From Mycoplasmatales bacterium (GTDB lineage Bacteria > Bacillota_I > Bacilli_A > Mycoplasmatales > G963692675), in the NCBI GenBank assembly GCA_963692675.1, contig OY830043.1:99008-163007 (forward strand): a stretch of 64,000 nucleotides of DNA, in the 5' to 3' direction. The notes beneath the pieces are model-generated. The model made no database searches. It saw only the letters and a list, made by a program, of their open reading frames with translations, and was not told the origin of the DNA. Below, one piece after another: positions 3,155 to 59,049 of the stretch. Each line of letters starts with the position of its first letter. Within the stretch, counting starts at the first letter, position 1. A program made the position numbers and the translations under genes.

Positions 3155-4367
3155 TTGATTGCTCAGGTATTGGTTTAAACCCAATTAATTCTTTTCCTTC
3201 TAAAATAGTTAACAATGCACCCCCACCAGTAGAAACATGATTAAAATGATATTCATTTAAATCTAATTGATTAACTGCTGCCACTGAATCTCCACCACCA
3301 ATAACAACATAACCATCAGTTTTTCCTACTGCTTTAGCAATTGCCATTGTTCCAATAGCATATTTGGGAAACTCAAAAACACCCATAGGACCATTTCACA
3401 AAATAGTTTTTGCTTTAGCAATAACCTTAATAAATTGCTTAATACTATTTTTACCAATATCTAAACCCATCATTCCATCAGGAATTTCATCAACAAAATA
3501 GTGTTTATCACTGTCATTACTAAATTCATTAGTTCCGACATAATCAACAGGTAAAATGATTTTATTTGCATATTTATGAAGTAATTCATTAGCTAATTCT
3601 ACACGATCCTTTTCAAAAATAGAAGTTCCTATTTTTTTTCCTTGTGAGGAAATAAAAGTATAACTCATGCCCCCACCAATAAGTACCTGATCAGCTTTTT
3701 CTAAAAAAGTTGATAAAATACCAATTTTATCAGATACTTTTGCTCCTCCAAGAATAGCAAGAAAGGGCCTTTTTGGATTAATAAGAATTGGTTCTAAAGC
3801 TGTTAATTCTTTTTCAACTAGTCTTCCAACAACTGCTTCCTTACTGTATTTAGCAACTCCATAATTTGAAGCATGCTTTCTATGTCCTGTTCCAAAAGCA
3901 TCATTGACAAATACATCTGCTAAAGAAGCATAAAAACGTGCTAACTCATCATTACATTTGGATTCTCAATTTACTTGTGTATCATTTTGTACATCATAAT
4001 ATCTTGTGTTTTCTAGAAAAAGAATATCTGTTTGATTTATGTTACTTATTCTTGTTTTAACATGTTCAAAATCAGTAGCTGCTTCAAAAGAGACATTAAG
4101 ATTATCATCAGAAAGAATTTTTTTAAAAACATCATAGACTGGCCTTAAAGTAAGTTTTTCTTTATCAGCTTCTTTTTTTATTCGTCCCAAATGAGAAATA
4201 ATAACTAGTGTTTTAGCACTTTTAACAATTTCTTTAATTGTTGGAAGAACTTTTTTAATTCTATTAAAATCTGATATGGTTCCATCAGGATTAAAGGGAA
4301 CATTTAAATCAAATCTTGCTAAAACAACTTTATTAATTAAGCTAACATCATCTAAAGTTTTTTTCAA
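3144..4367 (-). CDS. pgk: phosphoglycerate kinase
   Basis: Three same-frame fragments (3966-4367, 3396-3668, 3144-3386) give 407 aa. Motifs RFDLNVP, ISHLGR and GGGDS are present. The apparent start is TTG, and the stop overlaps the tpiA start by 11 nt. Confidence 0.9.
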
Positions 4368-7522: not shown

Positions 7523-10500
7523 TTAAAAAGATAAATATCATAAATATGTAATTAATGTTTTCATTAAATCAGCAAATCATTCATTTGTTGTTGTTGAAGT
7601 TTTAAATTGGAAAAATGCATGAGATAATGCTTTCATAAAGTCATCAGTGTTCACCAATGACATATAATCAGAACCAGCAGATTCAATAAATGCTTCCATG
7701 GTATAATCTACTTGATTAGAAGTAATTCCACATCATTCATTATCTGCTGGAGCAACTAATTCTTGAAATTCATTAGTTGAACATGTTGTAATTTTAATAG
7801 GATCATGAAATTGAATTTCTTTATAAAAAGGATGATTATTAGAAAATTGAAAACTATTTCTTTGGCCCCCAATAAATTGTTGATCTTTCATACTGCTAAT
7901 TATGTTTTTAACAAAACTTAAAGGGATTGAGCGAAAACCAAGTGTTAAAGTCATATTGCGCATTTCTGAAGAAATTTTATCACTCATAAATTGATATGCT
8001 TTTTGGACTTCCCTACTTAAGTCATTATTTCCTTGATACTTTACAGGTAAATAATCCATAATATTATTGCTATTATTACTTGTCCATGTTATCATGCTTT
8101 GAGGATCATACCCATTACTTTTACTTTTAATATAGTTATTTATGACATCCTGATACTTTCCATTTGGTTGATTAACTTCAAAAATTTTTCCTATTTCTCA
8201 TAAGCCAGTTTGTTTTTCAGATTTATAAATCCCAGTAGTTGGTTTATGAACATACTTTGAGTTAATTCAAACAGTTCTAGTTGGTTCACCAAAATAGGTG
8301 GCAACATCAGCAATATTTTGTAACATTTGAATAGCATTATTATCCATTGCATTTGCTTTAAATAAATTTTGATTCCCAGTTAAAATAGCAAGATTTAAAA
8401 ATTGAATAAAATTTTCATTTTTAGAACTTCTAAAAGTAGTTGTTAGAATTTTTTGTAAATCAATTGTTGAATAATTACTGAGAATATCTTTGATATCACT
8501 TAATCATTGATCAGAATCTTTAATTTTAAAATCAGTTATTTGTCCTGTTCTTCATCCTGCACGTACTTTTTTTTCTGAACCATTAGGATTTTGAATTTTA
8601 ATTGTTTTTAGGATTTCTGATTCTCTTATTTGATTTTTCTTTATTGTTTTTATTAATAATGTTCCTAAATCCGAATTATCATATTCATTAAACACTTCTT
8701 TCCTTAACGAATTATTGTAATATGATTCAAAATACAAATTATCAGTAAAAGCACTTTCTTGAAAAAAATGATCTGATGTCAGAGCGTGATAAAATAATTT
8801 ACCAAGAATATTTCCAATTGCTTGATAAGTATCTAACATTTCTTGATTTTGGCTAATTTCAGTATCATATTTTGATAATAAAAAACTAACAAAATGACTT
8901 TGAAATTGAAGTCCCTTAGAACCTAAAAAGCGATTCAACACAAAATTACTCGCCATGCTTTTTAATAACTCATAATTCATCACTGGCGGATTTTGATAAA
9001 TATCATATTCATCGGAGTTATAAAGTGATTTTCGAACAAGTAATAAATTTGTATTATAATTTAAATTTTTATTTGATTTAGCAGCGAAAAAAAAGTTATT
9101 TTTTATTCACCCAAATGGTTTTTTTAATGGTAATGTTGGTTGGACATTAAATAAATTTGCATTATTATTACTTACATGATGGCCAAATGAAAAAAACTCA
9201 TAATAAAACCGGTTGGCCTGATTTAGATTACCATCTTTAAATAATTGAAATCAGGCTTGTTCATAAGATCGCTTTTTATTTGGGATAAAATTAAGATCAT
9301 AGCCAGGTGTCCCTACTTCCTGCAAAATATTAAAATAAATATCTTTAAGATATTGATAAAGACCACTTTTGACTCCATAATCCAGATCTTTTTCATCTAA
9401 TAATAATCGATTAAAAGCAATTGCAGTTGTATTTAGTTTTCAAGGATTCATAACTGTATTGTTTTGCAATAATGATAAATGATAAAGAAAAATTTTATTA
9501 AAATCATCTTCTTTTTTAAAAGTCTCTAATGGTGATTCAATGAGATTTTCACGTTTAGTAATAGAATCATACAATTTTCCCCTTTCTCTATCTAAATGTG
9601 GTGGTGCAATCAATCTAATTGCAACAAGACTAGGCACATTTATGTTTACATCTATTAATTCACCATTTGATTGAGCAACTTTCTGAAAAGGTTGGTCATC
9701 ATCTGGTTTTATTAATAAATGGCCATAAAATTTAGCTTTAAATGATAAAGTTATATCAGTTAATTTATCCCTTAAATAGTAAGTAAGATGATTACCAGAT
9801 GAAATTCGGGAATATTTTCTTGTGTAAGGCTCCTCATCCCCTCAAAGAAAAACATATGGATATTGATTATTGAAATCAGAAAAAATTTTATTATGGACAC
9901 TATCATAAACAATGTGGGTTTTTGCTTTAGATTTTTGAAAAATGTCATTCATGGTTCAGTCAGTTGAATAAGTAGTAGTTGCATCTCTAATTTCATATGT
10001 TAATGCAGGATTAGAACTTCTTTCACAATGTGGATTAACAATCGCCACATCATAATAGCATCTTAAACCTTTAGTTAAGGAACTTGTTGCTACATAACCA
10101 AAAGAATTAGCAGTCCGAGAAACAGTGTAAATTTTAGTAAGATCAGCATCTTCTCATAAGTTATAAAAATAATTATTGTTTTCATTTATTGTTGTATAAT
10201 TTCAATCAATACCTTGATAAGTAGTATCAACTGCTTTTTTACTACCATCACTACTTATAATTAGATTTTTCTTGGCGTTGATTGTTGAATTTAAATCAGT
10301 TTGTAAATAATCCTGATATAATCTATTAAATTCACTTGAATATGCATTTACATTTTTCATTTCATCAATTTTGCTTGATAAATCACTTTGGATTTTTTCA
10401 GATTCCGAAAACTTAACCTTATTATTTATTTTTGGCAATGCAACTACAATACTTAAAAATATAGTAATTATTAAAATACCAATGACTAATGATAAAAAAG

Positions 10501-10558
10501 CATATGGATTAATTTTTCTTGTTAACTGCTTTATTTGTTTCAAAATCATGTTTATCAT
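7523..10558 (-). CDS. large membrane-anchored protein of unknown function (1011 aa)
   Basis: Four track fragments (10202-10558, 9440-9637, 8552-8983, 7733-8095) share one frame. I checked the 3' end codon by codon to the TAA at 7523. One N-terminal TM helix (FLSLVIGILIITIFLSIVVAL); no motif recognised. Confidence 0.6.
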
Positions 10559-10855
10559 TACTATACTTCTATCTTACTCATATTTTACTAAATTCAATAA
10601 ATTAAATATTAAATTGAAGATATTTCATTGAGATTAGCCAAAATTCTTAGAATAAGAAAGATAAAACTAACTTATCTCTTTTTCAAAATGGAATGAAATT
10701 ATAAATAAAATTATTTTTTATTATCTAAATTAGCAGAAAATAGTTCATTTACTTATGAAAAAATTTTTATAAACTTTATGGAATATGTTAAGTTATTCAA
10801 ACAATTAATAATCATGATTCTTGAGGCTAGTTTTAGATTGATAATTATTATTTTT

Positions 10856-11311
10856 TTAATTTCTTCTAAATTCTGATTCAGGCATGCTTTTTTTATAATA
10901 ATCATCTTTTTGATCATATCAATCATTTCTATGAGATCGTGAAGATTGTCTAAAAATTGGAGAAATTATTTCTTTTAAATGACTAGGCGTCCCAATATAA
11001 CCAGCTAATATTAATCACCCACCAATAGATCCTAAACAACTTGAAAGAATACCAATTGTCAAGATTAGTGCTCCATTTAATATTGTGCTTCCTTCTTCTG
11101 CATTTCTTAAATGAAAAATAGTAATTATAGATAAAAGCAAAATGAAACTGCCTATCCCAACACAAGATCAAACAATTGTACTTAGCAGTTTAGAATTGCC
11201 ATTATCAAAGTTATTAAATACTGCATTTATAATTAAGCTTACTATGATTATTATTGCTGCAAAAAAAATATTTATTGCTAAACCAACTTTTAGTAATTTA
11301 TGACTTCACAT
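10856..11311 (-). CDS. small multi-TM membrane protein (151 aa), paralog-family member
   Basis: Hand-translated frame from ATG 11311 to TAA 10856, with three TGA=Trp codons. Hydrophobic helices end in GSIGGWLILAGYIG. The track ORF 10983-11171 is a different, non-membrane-like frame of the same DNA. Confidence 0.5.
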
Positions 11312-11417
11312 TTTGTTTTCTCAATTTAACTAAAATAAATCAAACATTTTTGTTTATTTCTTATCTATCTAAAAAATCAGCATTTAGAAATAAACTTCTT
11401 AGTCTAATATTAGTAAA

Positions 11418-11990
11418 TTATGGAAATCTTCTATCTCTAGGGTGAGGACGACTTCTTGGTGGCCTTGGATTATCATCCCTATATTCTCTATGATCTCTTC
11501 TTGGTGGTTCCCTTCTGCCGGAATCATATGAATCATATTCATCATGAGCTCCACTATCATAATCATCTCTTCTTTCAGGTCTGGGATGAGAAGATCTTCG
11601 TGTTGGATCTTCTCACCGATCATGGCGATTATCATATAAATGATCTCTGTCTCTGTATGCATTTGGAGAAGTACTTGAAACATAGCCAATAAGAATTAAA
11701 ACCCCTCCAATAAAAGTAACAAAGAAAAGAGATATAATTCCTAATCCTAATATTAATCCTCTTTTTAATTCTTCTTGCTGTTGTTCTGCTTTTTTGACAT
11801 TTTTTAAAGCAACACTAGCTAAAGCTATATAAAAAATAGATAGAAGTAAAAATACTACTGATGCTGAAATAGGTAAAAGTATTCCTACAATGTTGTAAGT
11901 CACAATTAACATTGCCAAAAACAAGATTACAGCAAGCACTGCTGCAATTAAAACAAAAATTATTCCTATCTTCAAAACACGATATCCCAT
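11418..11990 (-). CDS. multi-TM membrane protein with ~70-aa Arg/Asp/Pro-rich C-terminal tail
   Basis: ORF 11613-11996 continues through a TGA to a TAA at 11418. ATG at 11990 follows a GAGGT Shine-Dalgarno. The last helix motif is GGVLILIGYV; the tail reads RRDDYDSGAHDEYDSYDSGRREPPRRDH... Confidence 0.6.
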
Positions 11991-12240
11991 ATACACCTCA
12001 ACAACTTAATTATAACAGAAAGATAACATAAAAAACACTTTAATTTATCTATTTATTATGATAAATAATTCCTTTTTCTTGTTTTTTAGTTAAATATTTC
12101 ATAATTGTAAATTACAAAAGAAAGCAACTACAATTCAGAAAATCAGTGATAATTCACATTATTTTCATTAATAATAATTTTTTAAAATTTAATTTTAATT
12201 TAAAAAATCACCAGTTAGAATAAGATTTAATTTTTATTTG

Positions 12241-12573
12241 TTATGAACCAGTTTTATATTTATGCAAGCCAATAAATATAATAATGCTTCCAAAAATAGT
12301 AATAAAAAAGAAAGAAAAAATTCCAAATATTAACATGAGCTTATCATTTAACTTTTCTTTGTTATACATAACTTTTCTAAGATGAAACAATACTTTATGA
12401 GCAACTATTATGAAGGAAATTGATCAAATTAATCCAATAATTGCAGGAATCATATAATTTACTTCTCAATTCTCAGAAATCATGCCAATTGCTATCAAAC
12501 ATCAACTTGCAAAACTAACTGCTAAAGTTAAAACTAGCAATACTCCTATTTTCATTACTTTTTGATAACTCAT
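12241..12573 (-). CDS. small multi-TM membrane protein (110 aa), paralog-family member
   Basis: ATG at 12573 follows a GAGGAG Shine-Dalgarno; TAA at 12241; TGA=Trp codons inside. The last helix reads GSIIIFIGL. Confidence 0.55.
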
Positions 12574-12836
12574 TTCAGTCTCCTCATTATTTATTATATT
12601 AAAGTTATTTATGATTACCTTATATTTATTTAATTTCAATAATAAAATTTTGATTATTTTTAAATAATAATTTTACATTTTTTATCTCATTATAAAACTA
12701 AAATTTATTATAAATGAATAAAAAATATATATGAAAATGAAATGTAATTCCAATTTTCTAAGATAAAATTTCTTAATTAATATGAGGGAAATTTTTATAT
12801 ATAATGATAATTAATAAAATATTTTAAAATTAATAC

Positions 12837-35826: not shown

Positions 35827-36177
35827 TTATTTAGTTAATGAAGGAGAAATTACAACTTTTTCATTCTTATTTTTCAATATGGAAATTTCTTCTAATTTAT
35901 GAAGTAGTTTTTTTTGTCCTAAATATAATAATATTGATCCAATAATGGTAGGAATTGCTAGAACTATTAGACAATAGGCCATTAACATACTAAATTTCTT
36001 TGCTCCTTCAATTGCTTGTGAATAATTTAAATAACTAGATAAAAAAAATAAGAAAAGAAAAATTAAGGGAATAAATAATCATAATAAATAAATATTTTCA
36101 ATAAAAATCAATGCTGTTATTGATGCAGTTATATAACAAAATAATGTATAAAAAAAACCAATTCTAAATACTTTCAC
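35827..36177 (-). CDS. possible small membrane protein (116 aa, GTG start)
   Basis: An open frame occupies the position where pstB would be expected. It is hydrophobic with no motif. It could be spurious in AT-rich DNA. Confidence 0.3.
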
Positions 36178-52931: not shown

Positions 52932-53414
52932 TTATCTTTTGGAAAATTGAGGTGCTTTTCTGGCCTTTTTTAAACCATATTTTTTTCGTTCTTTAATACG
53001 AGCATCAGTGGTTAGTAAACCATGTTCTTTTAATATTGGACGATACTTTTCTTCATTAATTATGATAAGAGCATTTGCTATTCCTAAACGAAGAGCATCG
53101 CTTTGAGCCCCTACTCCACCCCCACGAATGGTTGCGATAAGTTGGTATTTTTCTAAAGTTCCAGTAAGAATTAATGGAAAGAGAATATTTTTAACTGCTG
53201 GTAAAAAAGGAAAATACTGGTTAATTGGTTGTTTGTTTACTAGCATTCTTTCTGAAATATTTGACAAGGTAGCAAAATCAAACTCTTTGTCCTTTCTTTC
53301 ATCTTGATTTTCTAATTTATCACCACCAGTATGTTCTCGTAATATAACCCGAGCAACAGCCTTTTTTCTTCTCCCTAGGGCTGCAAATTGTATTAATTTT
53401 TTCTTCTTAATCAT
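52932..53414 (-). CDS. rpsI: 30S ribosomal protein S9 (with ~25-aa internal insertion)
   Basis: Contains GRRKKAVARV...GGGVGAQSDALRLGIANAL...KKARKAPQFSKR. ATG at 53414 overlaps the rplM stop. Confidence 0.9.
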   Translation of the reverse strand: MIKKKKLIQFAALGRRKKAVARVILREHTGGDKLENQDERKDKEFDFATLSNISERMLVNKQPINQYFPFLPAVKNILFPLILTGTLEKYQLIATIRGGGVGAQSDALRLGIANALIIINEEKYRPILKEHGLLTTDARIKERKKYGLKKARKAPQFSKR

Positions 53415-53862
53415 TTTGTACCTCTCTTTCTGTTGGGAAATCAATTCGTTGTGGTTTTTGAGCCATTAAACTATGCTCACTATCAGGAAAAATCTTTAAT
53501 CTTGTTAATTGTCGTGCAGCAATTTTGTTCTTCTGAAGCATACCTTTTACTGCTTTATAAAGCACTTTTGTTGGATCTTTTTCATGAACTCATGCTGCTG
53601 GTCTTTCTTTTAGTTTTCCTGGTTTAGTGGAATGAGAATAATAAATTTTGTTTTCTCATTTTTTCCCAGTGAACTTAACATATCTGGAATTTATGACCAC
53701 AACATAATCACCACAATCTTGATGGGGAACATAATTTGGTTTATTTTTACCACGTAGCATATTAGCTATTTTAACTGCTAGTCTACCAACTGTTTTTTCT
53801 TTAGCATCAATTAGATATCACTGTCGCTTAGTTACATCAACATTCATTGTTGTTTCTTTCAT
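53407..53862 (-). CDS. rplM: 50S ribosomal protein L13
   Basis: Hand translation reads [42 protein letters not shown]... ATG at 53862 follows GGCAGGAG. 151 aa. Confidence 0.9.
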
Positions 53863-54066: not shown

Positions 54067-54642
54067 TTAAAATCTATTAGCTAATTTATGATTTCAGTTT
54101 TTTACTGGCATATAAGAACATTTTGCTTGATGATCAAAAGCAAATATTGAGCATCAACTTTCTAGAACAACAAATAATCCAATTAATGGCATTAATGAAA
54201 AAGATACAATAAACAGAGCCTTTCAAAAAGCAAGTTTATGAATCCCTGCTTGCACTTTGCATATGTGACGAAAAAGTCAAATGTTTAATATAAATTGAAA
54301 TAAGATCACATAGCTTAATAAAGAAAGTCCTCCAATTATTACCAGTTCGTCAGTTTTATGTGAAAAAATGTCAATAATTCAATTTGGAACATTTTCATCT
54401 CTAATAGCTGCAGCTATATCATAATTAAATGCATCATGCACTCAGTCAGCAGCATTATTTGGTAAAACATCATATAATCAGGCTGTTTCTCCAACTACTG
54501 ATAAAATTGCTATTAAAGTAGCAATGATTAATGGAATAAGAATTAATACCCCAATAAAGATATTCATTACTGCACCATATTTCAACATTAAAAGCCTTTT
54601 TTCTAAAAAAACTTGCTTTTTATATCCTATATTTCTTTTCAT
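54067..54642 (-). CDS. multi-TM membrane protein, family B copy 2 (191 aa)
   Basis: ORF 54478-54660 extends through TGA codons to a TAA at 54067. ATG at 54642 follows GGGGAGGAAAT. Colinear paralog of 55409-55969. Confidence 0.6.
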
Positions 54643-54667
54643 ATTTCCTCCCCAAAACATGTTTACC

Positions 54668-55384
54668 TTAATAAAATCGATTGCATCTTTCCATTGATGC
54701 TAAATCCATTTCTAAGTTTTCTATTCTTTGATTCTGTCTTCTTTTATTTAAGTATATATTTTCCTTAATTCTACTGTTATTTTTTTCTAAATCTCAAATC
54801 CTTTTTTTAAGTTCTAACTTAAGAGAATTTGGAGACATAGCCTTGTGTCAACATTGGTTTTTAAAATGATTATTTTCATTAACATAATCATTTTTTTCTT
54901 GTGTGCAAGTAGTTATGACTGGCTTTCTTATGATTGGAGTTCTGTTGGCACTCACATACTGGTTAGTTAGTAAAGCTTCTTGTTTAACAGTTATTCCTGT
55001 TTTTAAACCAACTAAACCAATTAACATAAATACTCCACCACCAATACCTAAACTAAGTAACATTGCCATGATAAAATAACCTAAGTGAATTTTTGACTTA
55101 CTTCTAACTAAGCGGTTAATCTTTCCTAGTGGACACACTCCTACTAGAAAAAACATGCTAACTAGAGCAATGCTAATTGCAATTGGTTTAAGTATGTTGA
55201 GTGTTGAAACATTATCACTAAATAATCATTCATCAATACTACTTTTACTGACATTTAATGGATCAAAAATATTATCCATTATTAATGTATAAAAATTATC
55301 AACTAACTGCATTAATGTAAATGCTACACCCACTAGCAGTATTACCACAATGTTTAACACTGCTCCAAATTTATATATATTCAT
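54668..55384 (-). CDS. multi-TM membrane protein with coiled-coil/Arg-rich tail, family A copy 2 (238 aa)
   Basis: ATG at 55384 follows GGGGAGGAAAT. ORF 54848-55156 is the central fragment. The N-terminal 140 aa and the C-terminal RIENLEMDLAS motif match 55994-56713. Confidence 0.65.
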
Positions 55385-55408
55385 ATTTCCTCCCCAAAAA
55401 ATACTTTA

Positions 55409-55969
55409 TTAATATTTATAATACGGTTGTCTTATTGCTTTATAACCTTTAACTCTTCTATGAGCTGATTCAGGTGAATCAAAACTAAGTAATAACACAA
55501 AAATGGTTGTTACTCACATAAATGAAAAAATAGTCACTAATAAGGCTTTTCCTAATGCTAATTTACAAACCCCATTTGTTACCCGACTAGTATGCTTTAA
55601 TAACCATCCATTTAAAAATAATTGTACAAAAACAATTCAGCCTAAAATAACCAAACTACCAATCATTAATAGTTTATCAACATCTTGCGCTAAGATGTCA
55701 TTAATTCATTCTGGTAGGTTTTCTTTTGCTAATGCTTTTTCGATATCAAAAGCTAATACTTTCTCGATTCACTCACCCCAATTTGCAGGTAAAATATCAA
55801 ATAATAACTTTATTTCTCCAGTTACAGATAAGATACTAATAACTACTATCAAGATAATCGGAATTAGTAGCAAAATACCTAAAAAAATATTAAATAAAGC
55901 ACTAAATCTTAATCATCCAACTCTTTTATCAAAAACTCCTATTACAGAGCTAACTCTTTTTTGTCTCAT
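55409..55969 (-). CDS. multi-TM membrane protein, family B copy 1 (186 aa)
   Basis: Hand-translated and frame-checked from ATG 55969 to TAA 55409, with several TGA=Trp codons. NIFLGILLLIPIILIVVISILSVTGE aligns with copy 2. The plus-strand track ORF 55503-55997 is antisense to it. Confidence 0.6.
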
Positions 55970-55993
55970 TTTTTCTCCCCAAAATTTCCTAAC

Positions 55994-56713
55994 TTAACGT
56001 CGGTTACGTCTCCTTGTTGATGCTAAATCCATTTCTAAGTTTTCGATTCTTCGATTTTGTCTTCTTTCAGTAAAATATGCATTTTCTTCCATTCTTACAT
56101 TATGTCTTTTTAAATCTCGGATTCTCTTTTTTAATTCCATTACAGAAGCATCCTGAGCTCCTCTTTTATGAAATAAGCCTTGAGAATACTGTTCATCACT
56201 TTCATTAACATAATCCCCATCAGCTGCTACATAACTGTTTTGATCCAAAATATCAAATGTTCGATCATCTTCTTGAACATACTGATACTGATTATCTAGC
56301 AGTTGGGATTGTTTGACATATATTCCAGATCTTAAACCAACTAAACCAATCAACATAAATAATCCACCGCCAAAACCTAAACTAAGTAACATTGCAAAAA
56401 CAAAATAAAGAAGCTTAACTTTTGAACCACTTCTAATTAAATGCTTAATCTTGACTAATGGATACACTCCAACTAAAAAAAACATGACAATTAATCCAAC
56501 ACTAATCGCAATTGGCTTAAGCATGTTGATTGTTGAATAATTATCAATAAATAATAAATCATCAACAATATTTTTACTGACATTTAATGGATCAAAAATA
56601 TTCTCCATTACTAATGTGTAAAAACTATCAACAACATGCATTAATGCAAATGCCACACCTAATAGCAGTATTGCCACAATGTTCAACACTGCTCCAAATC
56701 TATATATATTCAT
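55994..56713 (-). CDS. multi-TM membrane protein with coiled-coil/Arg-rich tail, family A copy 1 (239 aa)
   Basis: Intact track ORF with a GGGGAGGAAAT Shine-Dalgarno. Several predicted TM helices are followed by an acidic linker and a basic heptad-like tail ...RIENLEMDLASTRRRNRR. Confidence 0.7.
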   Translation of the reverse strand: MNIYRFGAVLNIVAILLLGVAFALMHVVDSFYTLVMENIFDPLNVSKNIVDDLLFIDNYSTINMLKPIAISVGLIVMFFLVGVYPLVKIKHLIRSGSKVKLLYFVFAMLLSLGFGGGLFMLIGLVGLRSGIYVKQSQLLDNQYQYVQEDDRTFDILDQNSYVAADGDYVNESDEQYSQGLFHKRGAQDASVMELKKRIRDLKRHNVRMEENAYFTERRQNRRIENLEMDLASTRRRNRR

Positions 56714-56739
56714 ATTTCCTCCCCAAAAATACTTCTTCT

Positions 56740-57309
56740 TTATCGATGCCTATAATAAGGTCTTCTCCGAGCATTACCTCTTCTTACATCATAAGGTCTT
56801 CTTATAGCTCTAGATTGAAAGCTTATTGGTTTTTTTGCAAAACAACCAATAAGCATAAATATTCCTGTAGCTAAAGGTATTATTGAAAGAACTGAAACAA
56901 AAACTGCATATAATTTTGACATATCTGCTATTCCTTGTCTTGCCTTGGTTATATTTACTAAAAGTTTAATAGTCATAAGTATGTTTACACTAAAAACATA
57001 TGATGCTAATCCAAAAGAAACTCCCATAATTAACAGATCAATATCTTCAGTTAAAACTGTTTTAACCCAAGATGGTAAATGTGCTGTTACCATTTCTGAT
57101 GCAGAAGTAACATTAGCATCTAATAACAACTTTAATTGTTCAAGATCTGTTGAATTAGGAAGAATTATTTTTAATGACTCTACATTTCCAGTATAAAAAA
57201 ATGTTGCGATAATTCCAATACCAAGTGCTCCTAAAAACACTGGGATACCTAAAATAACATTAATTATTGCCCAAAATTTTAAAAAGGACATTCCTTTTCC
57301 TTGATTCAT
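56740..57309 (-). CDS. multi-TM membrane protein with Arg-rich tail, related architecture (189 aa)
   Basis: Intact track ORF with a GAGGAG Shine-Dalgarno. Same layout (TM1, ~55-aa loop, later helices ending GIFMLIGCF) and the tail RRPYDVRRGNARRRPYYRHR. Confidence 0.7.
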   Translation of the reverse strand: MNQGKGMSFLKFWAIINVILGIPVFLGALGIGIIATFFYTGNVESLKIILPNSTDLEQLKLLLDANVTSASEMVTAHLPSWVKTVLTEDIDLLIMGVSFGLASYVFSVNILMTIKLLVNITKARQGIADMSKLYAVFVSVLSIIPLATGIFMLIGCFAKKPISFQSRAIRRPYDVRRGNARRRPYYRHR

Positions 57310-57429
57310 TATAATTCTCCTCTTCAGATTCTTCTACAAACAATCTTTATTTCATTTTTAATTATTACATCCATCACATCCTCCCCGTAAATTTAATTCC
57401 TCATACTTATTATAACACAAAATTTTGAT

Positions 57430-58431
57430 TTATAGAATTGAAGTACCATGTGGGCCAATAAAGGCTAGAAAATCATATGGTCATTCAGATTTAATTACTT
57501 CAGCAACATGCATTAATTCCAAAAGATACACAACAAGCCTTGGGGTGTAGATTTTTATTGCCACAGAAGGTTTAATTAAATTTTTTTGTAATAATAATGA
57601 ATAATCATTTTTGCCACTATAGTTTACAACTTGTAGCTGATTTAGTTGGTCCTGATAGTTTGCTGAAAAAGCAAACTCAACTAATGGCCATGATCTTCCT
57701 AGTTCAGAAAACTTAGCTACTAATTTTGCATGAGATTCAATTCGATGGGTTGTGGGTAAAAAATGAAAGTCATTAGAAAAACCTTGATTATTGCGAGAAT
57801 CATCAATAATAATAAAAGGACTTTCATCTTGAGAATGTAAATCTAAAAGTGGCTGAACTGTCCTTTTGCCGAATTTTTTTATTAAATCTGAATGCATACA
57901 ATGAGGAAATGTTTTTAAAAATATTTTCCCTATATTTGTTTTATCATGAATTTTATCAACTACCTTTAATAAAGAAGTAATAAATTTATCAACTATTTTT
58001 ATCATGCCTCTTGTATCACGAGTATCATTTTTATTAAGTGTATACTCTATTTCAATTTGATTCATTTTAATAGCTGTAAGGTTATCAAGTTTTGTATCTC
58101 GTCAAATAACAGGCGTATCATAAATAATCCCAGTTATTTCATCTTGGTCATGTTTATATAGTAATCACCGTCTTGCTAAATCAAAATAGACTGGTAACTC
58201 TAAAAATAAATCAGTAGTGTTAGATGAAAAAGATATAGAGCGGCTATTTGAAGAAAAAAAGGAATGAAAAACATTATTTGCATATCTTTGAATAATTGGT
58301 GCATCAATTGGAGTTAATAAATGAGATTCTATCAATTCATTCATTAACTCTTGTTTTAAAAAATAATTATACTCCTGAATGTCTTTTAATTTTATTGTTT
58401 GCTTATAATTTTTAATAGCTTCGTAATCCAT
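57430..58431 (-). CDS. asnA: aspartate--ammonia ligase (asparagine synthetase A)
   Basis: Fragments 58165-58431 and 57481-58065 are in frame (333 aa). Colinear by eye with E. coli AsnA (LTPIDAPII, DTPVI-W-RD, C-terminal LLELMHVAEV...W). Confidence 0.8.
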
Positions 58432-58440
58432 TATTTCTCC

Positions 58441-59049
58441 TTATAAAAGGTCAAAAGGGTCTTTGATGTTTATTTTGTTTATCTCTATTTCACTAGTCTC
58501 TTCTTGTTGCTTATTATCTTTTTTAAATATCTTATTTTTGCTTAAAGGTTTCTTATCTTTAGAATGCTTAAATCTAGAAATGGTTTTATCTTTATATTTA
58601 ACTATGTCTTGCTTTAAATACTTGACTGGTTTTCGTTTTCGATCATCTTTTTCATTGATTAATTTTTCAATATCACTAATCTTAATGGCCTCAATTGAAT
58701 CAACCTCCCAGACAAACTCCTTTTTTCCAACTGGAACTTCACGCATCATTAAGGTATAACCTTTACGAATCATGGATTTCTTACCAATTTTTGGGTTAGT
58801 AACCTTTAAAATTAAATCTACTCTCCCCTCTTTGTTTTGGGCAGTAAGCGCATGGTGATAACGTTGATCAATTTCATATGAATGATTAGATAAACCATCC
58901 TTCTTTAATTGTTCTTTAACAGAAGGTTTAATAAAAGCATTAAAATTATCCTTTTGTTTCTTTTTTTTAATTATCCGATTAACAATATAATAAATTCCAA
59001 CAACAACAACTATTGCTAATAAAAGGTAAGTGATAGTCCCACCTAACAC
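58441..59049 (-). CDS. hypothetical N-terminally anchored Lys-rich protein (202 aa)
   Basis: Intact track ORF with a GTG start. One TM helix (ITYLLLAIVVVVGIYYIV), then a charged domain. Confidence 0.5.
   Translation of the reverse strand: MLGGTITYLLLAIVVVVGIYYIVNRIIKKKKQKDNFNAFIKPSVKEQLKKDGLSNHSYEIDQRYHHALTAQNKEGRVDLILKVTNPKIGKKSMIRKGYTLMMREVPVGKKEFVWEVDSIEAIKISDIEKLINEKDDRKRKPVKYLKQDIVKYKDKTISRFKHSKDKKPLSKNKIFKKDNKQQEETSEIEINKINIKDPFDLL

Follow-up and report, generated by a model that had tools for sequence, protein, structure and literature searches.

The 64,000-nucleotide window analysed here (positions 99,008 to 163,007 of contig OY830043.1, from a bacterium placed in the Mycoplasmatales) carries on its minus strand, at 54067-57309, five consecutive genes for small membrane proteins, which we call C, A1, B1, A2 and B2 in their 5' to 3' order and which are the subject of this analysis. 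The GC content is about 29% throughout the window, the array being no different from the rest, and many long reading frames are broken by TGA alone. Calling of open reading frames (ORFs) with translation table 4 yields a dense, mainly minus-strand gene map typical of a Mollicute, which includes genes for glycolysis, glpFKO, genes of the phosphotransferase system, dha kinase genes, polA and rplM-rpsI. Among the matches listed for GAPDH none exceeds 59% identity; most come from outside the Mollicutes (Firmicutes and Bacteroidota), with some from Acholeplasmataceae/Izimaplasma metagenome-assembled genomes, and comparison of L13 with PDB ribosomes did not discriminate among lineages. Under this table all five genes of the array are intact, and each product has three hydrophobic segments of about 26-31 residues, separated by an acidic first loop of about 40-50 residues and a short basic second loop; the original prediction of five minus-strand genes for multi-transmembrane (TM) proteins is thus borne out. 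It had also described B1 and B2 as fragmentary in the standard code, and this is explained by in-frame TGA-Trp codons, of which B1 has five and B2 seven (A2 has three, C and A1 none). No in-frame TAA or TAG that would mark a pseudogene was found in any of the five genes in three genomes. With intergenic spacers of 24-26 nt, the five genes read as a tight, operon-like array composed of a short form (C and, more diverged, B) and a long form (A):

56740-57309, minus strand: gene C, short form, 189 amino acids (aa), three hydrophobic segments, Arg-rich tail of net charge +11 with the end RRPYYRHR
55994-56713, minus strand: gene A1, long form, 239 aa, with a three-segment membrane domain (residues 1-128), an acidic, Tyr-rich linker of net charge -9 (129-193) and a basic, heptad-patterned helix (194-239)
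55409-55969, minus strand: gene B1, diverged short form, 186 aa, tail of net charge +5 with the end QPYYKY
54668-55384, minus strand: gene A2, long-form paralog, 238 aa, linker acidity lost (net +3), helix conserved
54067-54642, minus strand: gene B2, diverged short form, 191 aa, Arg-rich tail mostly lost (net +3)

A1 and A2 are 60% identical (E=1.5e-93) and B1 and B2 42% (E=5e-45), and the motifs quoted for the two pairs in the original prediction are all present. Gene C, which had been proposed to be related as well, matches B1 at 27% identity (E=2e-18) and B2 at 25% (E=7e-15). The A-B unit is repeated with a period of 1323-1329 nt, and the nucleotide sequences of its two copies run colinear for about 1.35 kb, in agreement with the proposed tandem duplication of a two-gene unit. 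The leader TTTGGGGAG(G/A)AAA is matched exactly at four sites of the window, where chance alone would give 0.49, and all four lie in the array, as follows:

56715-56727, minus strand: leader TTTGGGGAGGAAA (Shine-Dalgarno) of A1
55971-55983, minus strand: leader TTTGGGGAGAAAA of B1
55386-55398, minus strand: leader TTTGGGGAGGAAA of A2
54644-54656, minus strand: leader TTTGGGGAGGAAA of B2

Gene C has a different Shine-Dalgarno (SD) context, AGAGGAGAA, together with a short ORF upstream. The statement that all copies keep the same leader therefore holds for A1, B1, A2 and B2 and fails for C. The matched SD leaders and the spacing suggest that A1, B1, A2 and B2 are co-expressed.

Relationship of the short and long forms

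A first profile-profile comparison of A with B/C gave a weak result. In a six-frame search under code 4, positions 4-129 of the A-type profile matched the C-type protein of a related locus, L003 (E=2.7e-7), and A types were matched by the C/B profile at E=0.0016. When the A profile was confined to the membrane domain, it scored the same L003 protein (L003_C) at 25.8 bits in a colinear alignment, a value reached by none of 500 layout-preserving shuffles (mean 1.8, maximum 15.1); the scores of the C proteins W_C, L2_C and L004_C were reached by 3-6 of 500 shuffles (3 for W_C). C in turn links to B at E=1e-15 to 1e-18. On these sequence comparisons A, C and, through C, B are one family in two architectures, not two unrelated proteins.

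The domain common to both forms has a recognizable signature. It begins with the motif (F/Y)(G/A)A-x-x-N-I-x-x-G in the first hydrophobic segment (TM1), continues with the acidic loop of about 40-50 residues, which in the short forms ends in LP-x-W, and proceeds through the short, basic loop between TM2 and TM3 to a Gly/Pro-kinked TM3, as in G-x-F-M-L-I-G. Across nine short forms the A, N and G of TM1 and the S of TM3 are invariant, and within the A types the TM1 Asn (N11) and the TM3 Ser (S111) are likewise invariant. Behind this domain the short form has an Arg/Tyr-rich tail that often ends in PYY, and in the long form an acidic linker rich in Tyr leads into a basic helix that includes R-I-E-N-L-E-x-D-L. 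The heptad core of this helix, L-I-L-N-(M/I/L)-x, a register shift and then I-L-L, is conserved across lineages, and an AlphaFold2 (AF2) model of an A type shows residues 188-238 as a single helix, the best-scored part of an otherwise poor model.

The original prediction could assign no family to these proteins, and our searches lead to the same answer. None of the five proteins, nor any of 17 family members scanned singly, reaches a gathering cut-off in Pfam-A or NCBIfam. The best Pfam match aligns residues 62-154 of C with PF16943 (T4SS_CagC) at E=0.055 and 14.1 bits against a cut-off of 27.9 bits; a CagC/VirB2-like pilin identity for C was rejected, as only one of nine family members gives this match. 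Components of type IV secretion systems (T4SS; VirB4/VirD4 ATPases) were found near neither the array nor the second locus described below, whose neighbours are ABC transporter genes and repeat proteins. An NCBIfam MreC match on A2 (0.55) is weak and was discarded as chance. In PHROGs there is only a 26-residue match to a family of unknown function (E=0.015), PADLOC defence models match none of the five proteins at E<=0.1, sequence-profile searches of the PDB return nothing below E=0.1, and a Foldseek search with the low-confidence B1 model (predicted local distance difference test, pLDDT, 54) returned no match at E<=0.001. Comparison of C by tblastn with 50,697 phage records gave no match, nor did the plasmid collection, and the A-type alignment retrieved no relative from IMG/VR, JGI metagenome contigs or GTDB species representatives. 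No match to a characterised transporter or phage family, which the original prediction had named as evidence against its reading, thus emerged. Word-indexed protein searches retrieved the orthologs plus P0015 only. An exhaustive HMMER pass of the C/B profile over 1.84 billion representative proteins gave six clusters in total, three of them new C-like proteins (P0012, P0013 and P0014); P0017 is a further C-like relative. The array thus belongs to an orphan family confined to a small number of code-4 Mollicutes that are uncultured or little studied.

The window itself may hold further, distant members of the family, for a second cluster of small membrane ORFs lies on the minus strand at 10856-12639:

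11418-11996, minus strand: 192 aa, probably a distant member of the family, with three hydrophobic segments, a short first loop and an 87-residue R/D/P/Y-rich tail
12241-12639, minus strand: 132 aa, possibly a distant member of the family, scoring 14.5 bits with the A-type profile (reached by none of 400 shuffles)

The first of these scores 19.6 bits against the A-type profile (reached by 1 of 400 shuffles) and 20.4 bits against the C/B profile (0 of 400), with no significant Pfam match; the second is weaker against the C/B profile, where 9 of 400 shuffles reach its score. Two other ORFs, 35827-36177 and 10856-11311, have a terminal G-x-x-x-L-x-G look but were not accepted as members, the shuffle controls being unconvincing (marginal for 10856-11311). 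These sequence matches hint at a family of greater size and age than the array by itself implies.

Gene order, duplication and selection

All five genes recur, intact and in synteny, in L001 (about 95% protein identity) and L002 (about 80-88%), two relatives assembled from metagenomes, and in all three genomes the array is flanked by an AsnA-like gene on one side and rplM-rpsI on the other. A code-4 organism at greater distance, L004, present in at least five datasets (L086-L091 are near-identical fragments), has matching flanks, with a 199-aa protein and the AsnA-like gene upstream and rplM-rpsI downstream. Its array consists of C and then five A-type units with a period of 720-773 nt, the last of which has a different C-terminus, and holds no B gene. 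Two of the five A units (L004 5444-6805) are broken by frameshifts or stops, which are possibly sequencing errors rather than pseudogenes because this long-read contig has 5x coverage; the short-read assemblies L088-L091 break inside the first A copy, as near-identical repeats would lead one to expect. The contig L005 (687 bp, from a relative of L004) holds a C-like gene and, immediately after it, the beginning of an A-like gene.

Outside the array, L003 carries at 10001-11308 a single pair, C' (185 aa) and A' (238 aa), beside ABC-transporter genes. Two findings show it to be the second locus of the window's genome group: the 90% cluster of A' includes P0021, from the window's 791,436-bp genome, and L092, from the sample of L002, carries an identical C'-A' locus (9409-10714). 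Every genome of the window's group thus has two loci, the five-gene array and the separate C'-A' pair. The latter lies downstream of ligA-gatAB-trkAH-ABC-ABC2 and of a 134-aa acidic protein. The ABC2 ortholog of L004 lies upstream of the rplM-linked array, and the two loci may therefore derive from one ancestral locus.

Throughout these sequences (the window, L001, L002, L003, L092, L004, L088-L091 and L005) the short form is followed directly by the long form in the same orientation. C-then-A adjacency is accordingly found in four places, the window, the second locus, L004 and L005, with spacers of 26-34 nt in the three where they were measured, and B genes are confined to the window's genome group. 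The conserved unit is C then A, not A-B. The original prediction had taken the survival of A-B pairing after duplication as a sign that the two proteins work together. This pairing is not independent evidence, because one 1.33-kb segmental duplication copies both genes and their order then says nothing on partnership; moreover, comparison of copy number across relatives shows A-B duplicated in the window's group and, in L004, five A genes and no B. For C and A the argument is stronger: their adjacency is kept in two independent lineages and in a fragment of a third, and they appear to have been duplicated as a pair, all of which suggests a partnership.

A plausible history can be drawn from the identities and synonymous distances. 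A1 and A' are 46-48% identical and either is 39% identical to the A of L004, while C, C' and the C of L004 are roughly equidistant at 37-43% and B is 23-30% identical to any C. The ancestral unit would have been C then A, and the lineage of the window would have acquired its second locus by duplication of this pair as a whole. After that event a copy derived from C, namely B, would have arisen and diverged fast, and the A-B segment of 1.33 kb would have been duplicated in tandem last, giving C-A1-B1-A2-B2. Even this last duplication is old. The synonymous distance (dS) between the units is 1.1 for B1/B2, 1.3 for the A1/A2 linker and 1.0 for the A1/A2 C-terminal part, so that synonymous divergence is saturated or nearly so outside the N-terminal part of A, where in the first 128 codons it is only 0.27. 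The DNA identity of the units varies in the same way, from 85-90% in the leader and first 200 nt or so of A, through 37-55% in the linker and 70-87% in the C-terminal helix, to 45-65% in B. Over the first 192 nt of A the paralogs A1 and A2 are about 90% similar, which is the level of the window and L002 orthologs (the 5' ends with their leaders lie at 56520-56739 and 55195-55408). This pattern suggests that the first 190 nt or so of A1 and A2 were homogenised later, by gene conversion or through strong constraint on the 5' end.

We next consider selection, for which dN/dS (omega) was estimated by the Nei-Gojobori method between the orthologs of the window, L001 and L002. Over all five genes it ranges from 0.09 to 0.54 (A1 0.09-0.23, B1 0.22-0.33, A2 0.26-0.36, B2 0.36-0.43), and for C'-A' at the second locus it is 0.18-0.29. 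Purifying selection thus acts on every copy. Comparison of the variable linker of A with the conserved parts, as proposed in the original prediction, gave a pooled omega of 0.47 for the linker and 0.15 for the helix, with 0.22-0.26 for the hydrophobic segments, 0.44 for the tails and 0.52 for loop 1; the A1 helix by itself is at 0.11 and the A2 linker at 0.56. In individual genes loop 1 reaches 0.86 in A2 and about 1.2 in C, the latter from small counts (20 non-synonymous against 5 synonymous).

Possible roles of the C-A pair

The features described above could be accommodated by a model in which C and A form a hetero-oligomeric membrane scaffold or tether, joined through their membrane domains, through complementary charged tails and through the coiled coil of A; we favour this model tentatively and hold it to be a little short of probable. 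In it, short and long forms would co-assemble through their homologous membrane domains, and the contacts might plausibly be made by the Asn conserved within the membrane and by the Gly-rich TM3. The C tail and the A linker should lie on the same side of the membrane because both follow a homologous third hydrophobic segment, and the basic tail of C could thus pair electrostatically with the acidic linker of the adjacent A. This is consistent with the net charges, which for the C tail are +11 in the window, +12 in L002, +14 in L003 and +13 in L004, and for the adjacent, Tyr-rich A linker -9, -10, -12 and -9, respectively. The C-terminal helices of A would then zip into a coiled coil, and the product would be a scaffold or tether rather than an enzyme or a classical transporter. 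In the extra copies the charge has faded (B1 +5/+6, B2 +1 to +3, A2 linker +3/+5), and B1, A2 and B2, in which complementarity is mostly gone, may be sub-functionalised accessory subunits.

Several considerations weigh against this model. Contact between the C and A proteins is a proposal drawn from sequence features, and the AF2 models are of low confidence (pLDDT about 50 for the A type and 54 for B1), only their secondary structure having been used. B1 and B2 have no direct similarity to A and are joined to it via C only. The charge complementarity is seen in three types of pair, which represent two independent lineages and one old pair of paralogs, and it is absent from B1, A2 and B2 though these are conserved. 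Topology poses a further difficulty. An N-in orientation is suggested by the basic character of the N-terminus (with 6-7 Lys/Arg in B) and of loop 2, in which case three true spans would put the basic tail on the side opposite to the N-terminus and loop 2 and would break the positive-inside rule; all basic parts could be cytoplasmic only if TM3, which has 28-29 residues and a central GGG or P-x-x-G, were a re-entrant hairpin, which is conjecture. Strict 1:1 stoichiometry with the short form is not required either, because L004 has amplified A alone five-fold. Finally, the neighbourhoods of both loci give no functional pointer.

A different explanation is that these are surface-exposed host-interaction proteins whose acidic loop, and perhaps tails and coiled coil, face outward and whose amplification and gene conversion diversify the surface; we consider this unlikely, although it has points in its favour. 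With three true spans and N-in the tails would be outside, loop 1 evolves fastest (pooled omega 0.52, with the values for C and A2 given above), the 5' end of A bears signs of gene conversion, copy number and composition vary by lineage (A-B doubled versus five A in L004), and the family is limited to a few organisms known mostly from metagenome assemblies. There is also precedent, since effector innovation by tandem duplication is documented in host-dependent Mollicutes: small alpha-helical and coiled-coil effectors are tandemly duplicated in phytoplasmas, in a study that excluded proteins with transmembrane domains (PMC12633904). Like these and other tandem families of Mollicutes, the array comes from a host-dependent, genome-reduced, wall-less bacterium and encodes small helical proteins of a narrow clade that include a coiled-coil segment and have expanded by tandem duplication, with copy number differing among related lineages. 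Its products differ in being integral to the membrane and in having neither a cleavable signal nor a lipobox; the pattern [LVI][ASTVI][GAS]C, expected of Mollicute variable surface lipoproteins (Vsp/Vlp/Vsa-type), does not occur within the N-terminal 60 residues of any array protein, and A1 is free of Cys. They differ further in that two architectures are kept as an adjacent pair, in having no similarity to a described effector or surface family, and in lacking signals of repeats or phase variation: the only homopolymer or dinucleotide tract is one T8 run inside A1, and Tandem Repeats Finder (TRF) reports two trivial 2-copy repeats only within the genes. Furthermore, overall omega is well under 1 and the counts behind the value of about 1.2 are small, the most conserved elements are the end motifs of the tails and the A helix (0.15), unlike in variable antigens, Arg-rich tails of net +11 to +14 would better suit the cytoplasm, and the array holds a stable core-genome position by rplM-rpsI in two lineages.

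Fading of charge in the extra copies could also mean that only C-A1 and the second-locus pair are functional and that B1, A2 and B2 are redundant duplicates drifting towards loss, with no collective function of the array. This, in our view rather improbable, would fit the absence from B1, B2 and A2 of the charge features kept in every C-A pair, their higher omega (A2 0.26-0.36 and B2 0.36-0.43 against 0.09-0.23 for A1), the standing of the B types as the most divergent copies (23-30% to any C) and the broken A copies of L004, which would indicate that amplified copies may decay. Those breaks may be sequencing errors of the low-coverage contig, however, and B1, A2 and B2 are intact in three genomes at a dS of about 0.25-0.3 with omega clearly below 1. 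Given that the duplication is old (B1/B2 dS of about 1.1), unconstrained copies in an AT-rich genome should by now carry stops or frameshifts, and the SD leaders are perfectly preserved.

Alternatively, the proteins could form a small oligomeric channel or pore, be it holin-like, mechanosensitive or ion-channel-like, lined by the TM1 Asn and the TM3 Ser/Gly, with the A helices bundled beneath it. We regard this as very unlikely. A C-terminal helical bundle under the pore is common in small channels, the TM1 Asn is invariant in short forms and A types alike and the TM3 Ser within each group, and hetero-oligomers of paralogous subunits would account for co-expression. In outline the proteins also resemble class I holins and holin-antiholin pairs, which are small, with some three hydrophobic segments and many charges in the C-terminal tail, and may be encoded by paralogs side by side. 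Typical holins have about 70-150 aa, whereas the array proteins, at 186-239 aa, are about twice the usual size, and their hydrophobic segments have no conserved charged residues. Searches of PHROGs, Pfam and the PDB match no holin, channel or transporter family, and the phage, plasmid and IMG/VR collections none of the proteins. Nor is there a phage, mobile-element or lysis-cassette context: no lysin-like gene lies beside the array in the window, L001 or L002, the position of the array is conserved and its genes are under purifying selection, and in a code-4, presumably wall-less host a holin-endolysin system would have no obvious target.

The notion of a mobile-element, prophage or conjugative remnant, with C for instance as a VirB2/TrbC/CagC-like pilin, is effectively refuted: the pilins share with C two hydrophobic helices and a short basic loop, and C 62-154 aligns weakly with nearly the whole PF16943 profile (positions 22-108 of 119), to which the weak PHROG match may be added, but the score is far under the cut-off and confined to one member in nine, C carries one more TM segment and loop at its N-terminus, genes for a T4SS ATPase or an integrase and genes of phages or plasmids are absent from the vicinity, the phage, plasmid and viral-contig collections give no match, and the array has the GC content of its surroundings and a chromosomal position conserved in two lineages.

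To return to the scaffold or tether, it could conceivably be taken one step further, to a Mollicute-specific tether with the C-A pair as its core, a heteromer with an electrostatic zipper and a basic coiled coil that would anchor a polyanionic cytoplasmic partner (ribosomes, the nucleoid or anionic lipid domains) to the membrane of the wall-less cell, and whose composition would be tuned by the paralog arrays; this extension is a long shot. YidC/Oxa1-type insertases, which have ribosome-binding basic C-terminal tails, offer a purely functional analogy: they too combine a membrane domain with a positively charged helical or coiled-coil extension, and rplM-rpsI follow directly downstream of the array in two lineages. 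The array proteins differ from them in having no similarity to 60KD_IMP/YidC, three spans against five or more, and a second locus away from ribosomal genes, and binding of the array proteins to ribosomes or to any polyanion would be pure conjecture.

In minimal bacteria without a wall about one gene in three is unexplained, and many of these genes encode small membrane proteins missed by standard pipelines that read TGA as stop. Lineage-specific tandem families of membrane proteins are already familiar in Mollicutes, and what is offered here is a well-characterised orphan family rather than a mechanistic discovery. A signature, the two architectures and the conserved gene pair now define the family, together with a duplication history that has been dated, and the case yields a concrete structural hypothesis of complementary charged tails and a coiled coil. 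If the proteins did form a scaffold or tether, they would represent a new building block for membrane organisation in cells with neither wall nor classical cytoskeleton; if they were a surface family, they would mark host adaptation in a Mollicute clade of which little is known.

Upstream elements and flanking genes

Two elements read from the sequence lie ahead of gene C:

57409-57419, minus strand: extended -10 promoter-like element TGTGTTATAAT, upstream of the array
57309-57374, minus strand: 21-codon upstream ORF encoding MDVIIKNEIKIVCRRIWRGEL and a stop, with its own GGGGAGG Shine-Dalgarno at 57380-57386

TGnTATAAT elements likewise lie upstream of the C-type gene in L001, L002, L003 and L004. 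A generic scan for promoters and terminators gave counts at or below shuffle expectation and nothing informative, and Rfam contains no known RNA matching 52.8-58.6 kb. The only terminator-like hairpin in the 5.3-kb region (54683-54700, minus strand; GCATCAATGGAAAGATGC followed by a T-run) falls in the last codons of A2, just before B2, and is probably due to chance, one having been found against 1.4 expected from shuffles. The TAA stop of the upstream ORF overlaps the ATG of C (TAATG). This ORF is conserved in L001 (about 8990-9141) and L002 (about 9255-9407; MDVVNKNEIKIVCKRIFRGEV and a stop), and in L003 (about 9780-10003) and L004 (about 3865-4038) different short ORFs also read through the SD of the C-type gene. 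It may thus specify a leader peptide or serve as a device for translational coupling.

Upstream of the array, 57430-58431 (minus strand) encodes a divergent AsnA-like protein of 333 aa, similar to class II aminoacyl-tRNA synthetases (PF03590 at 30.4 bits, barely over the cut-off), and 58441-59049 (minus strand) a 202-aa, single-pass, Lys-rich protein; the order of these two genes is conserved in L001, L002 and L004. On the other side, rpsI of the window (52932-53444) encodes an S9 protein with an internal insertion of about 26 residues (containing GGDKLENQDERKDKEFDFATLSNISERM) relative to the 134-aa S9 of L004, and the S9 of L001 and L002 is annotated as a 160-aa product. Just downstream of C'-A', L003 encodes a 1139-aa protein (12281-15700) and a paralog cut by the contig end (15985-16734), each with an N-terminal membrane anchor. 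The former contains long degenerate repeats (including VTGESTVQGASSLLGDVTIGDT), the paralog stops where such repeats start, and both resemble a family of beta-helix-type surface proteins.

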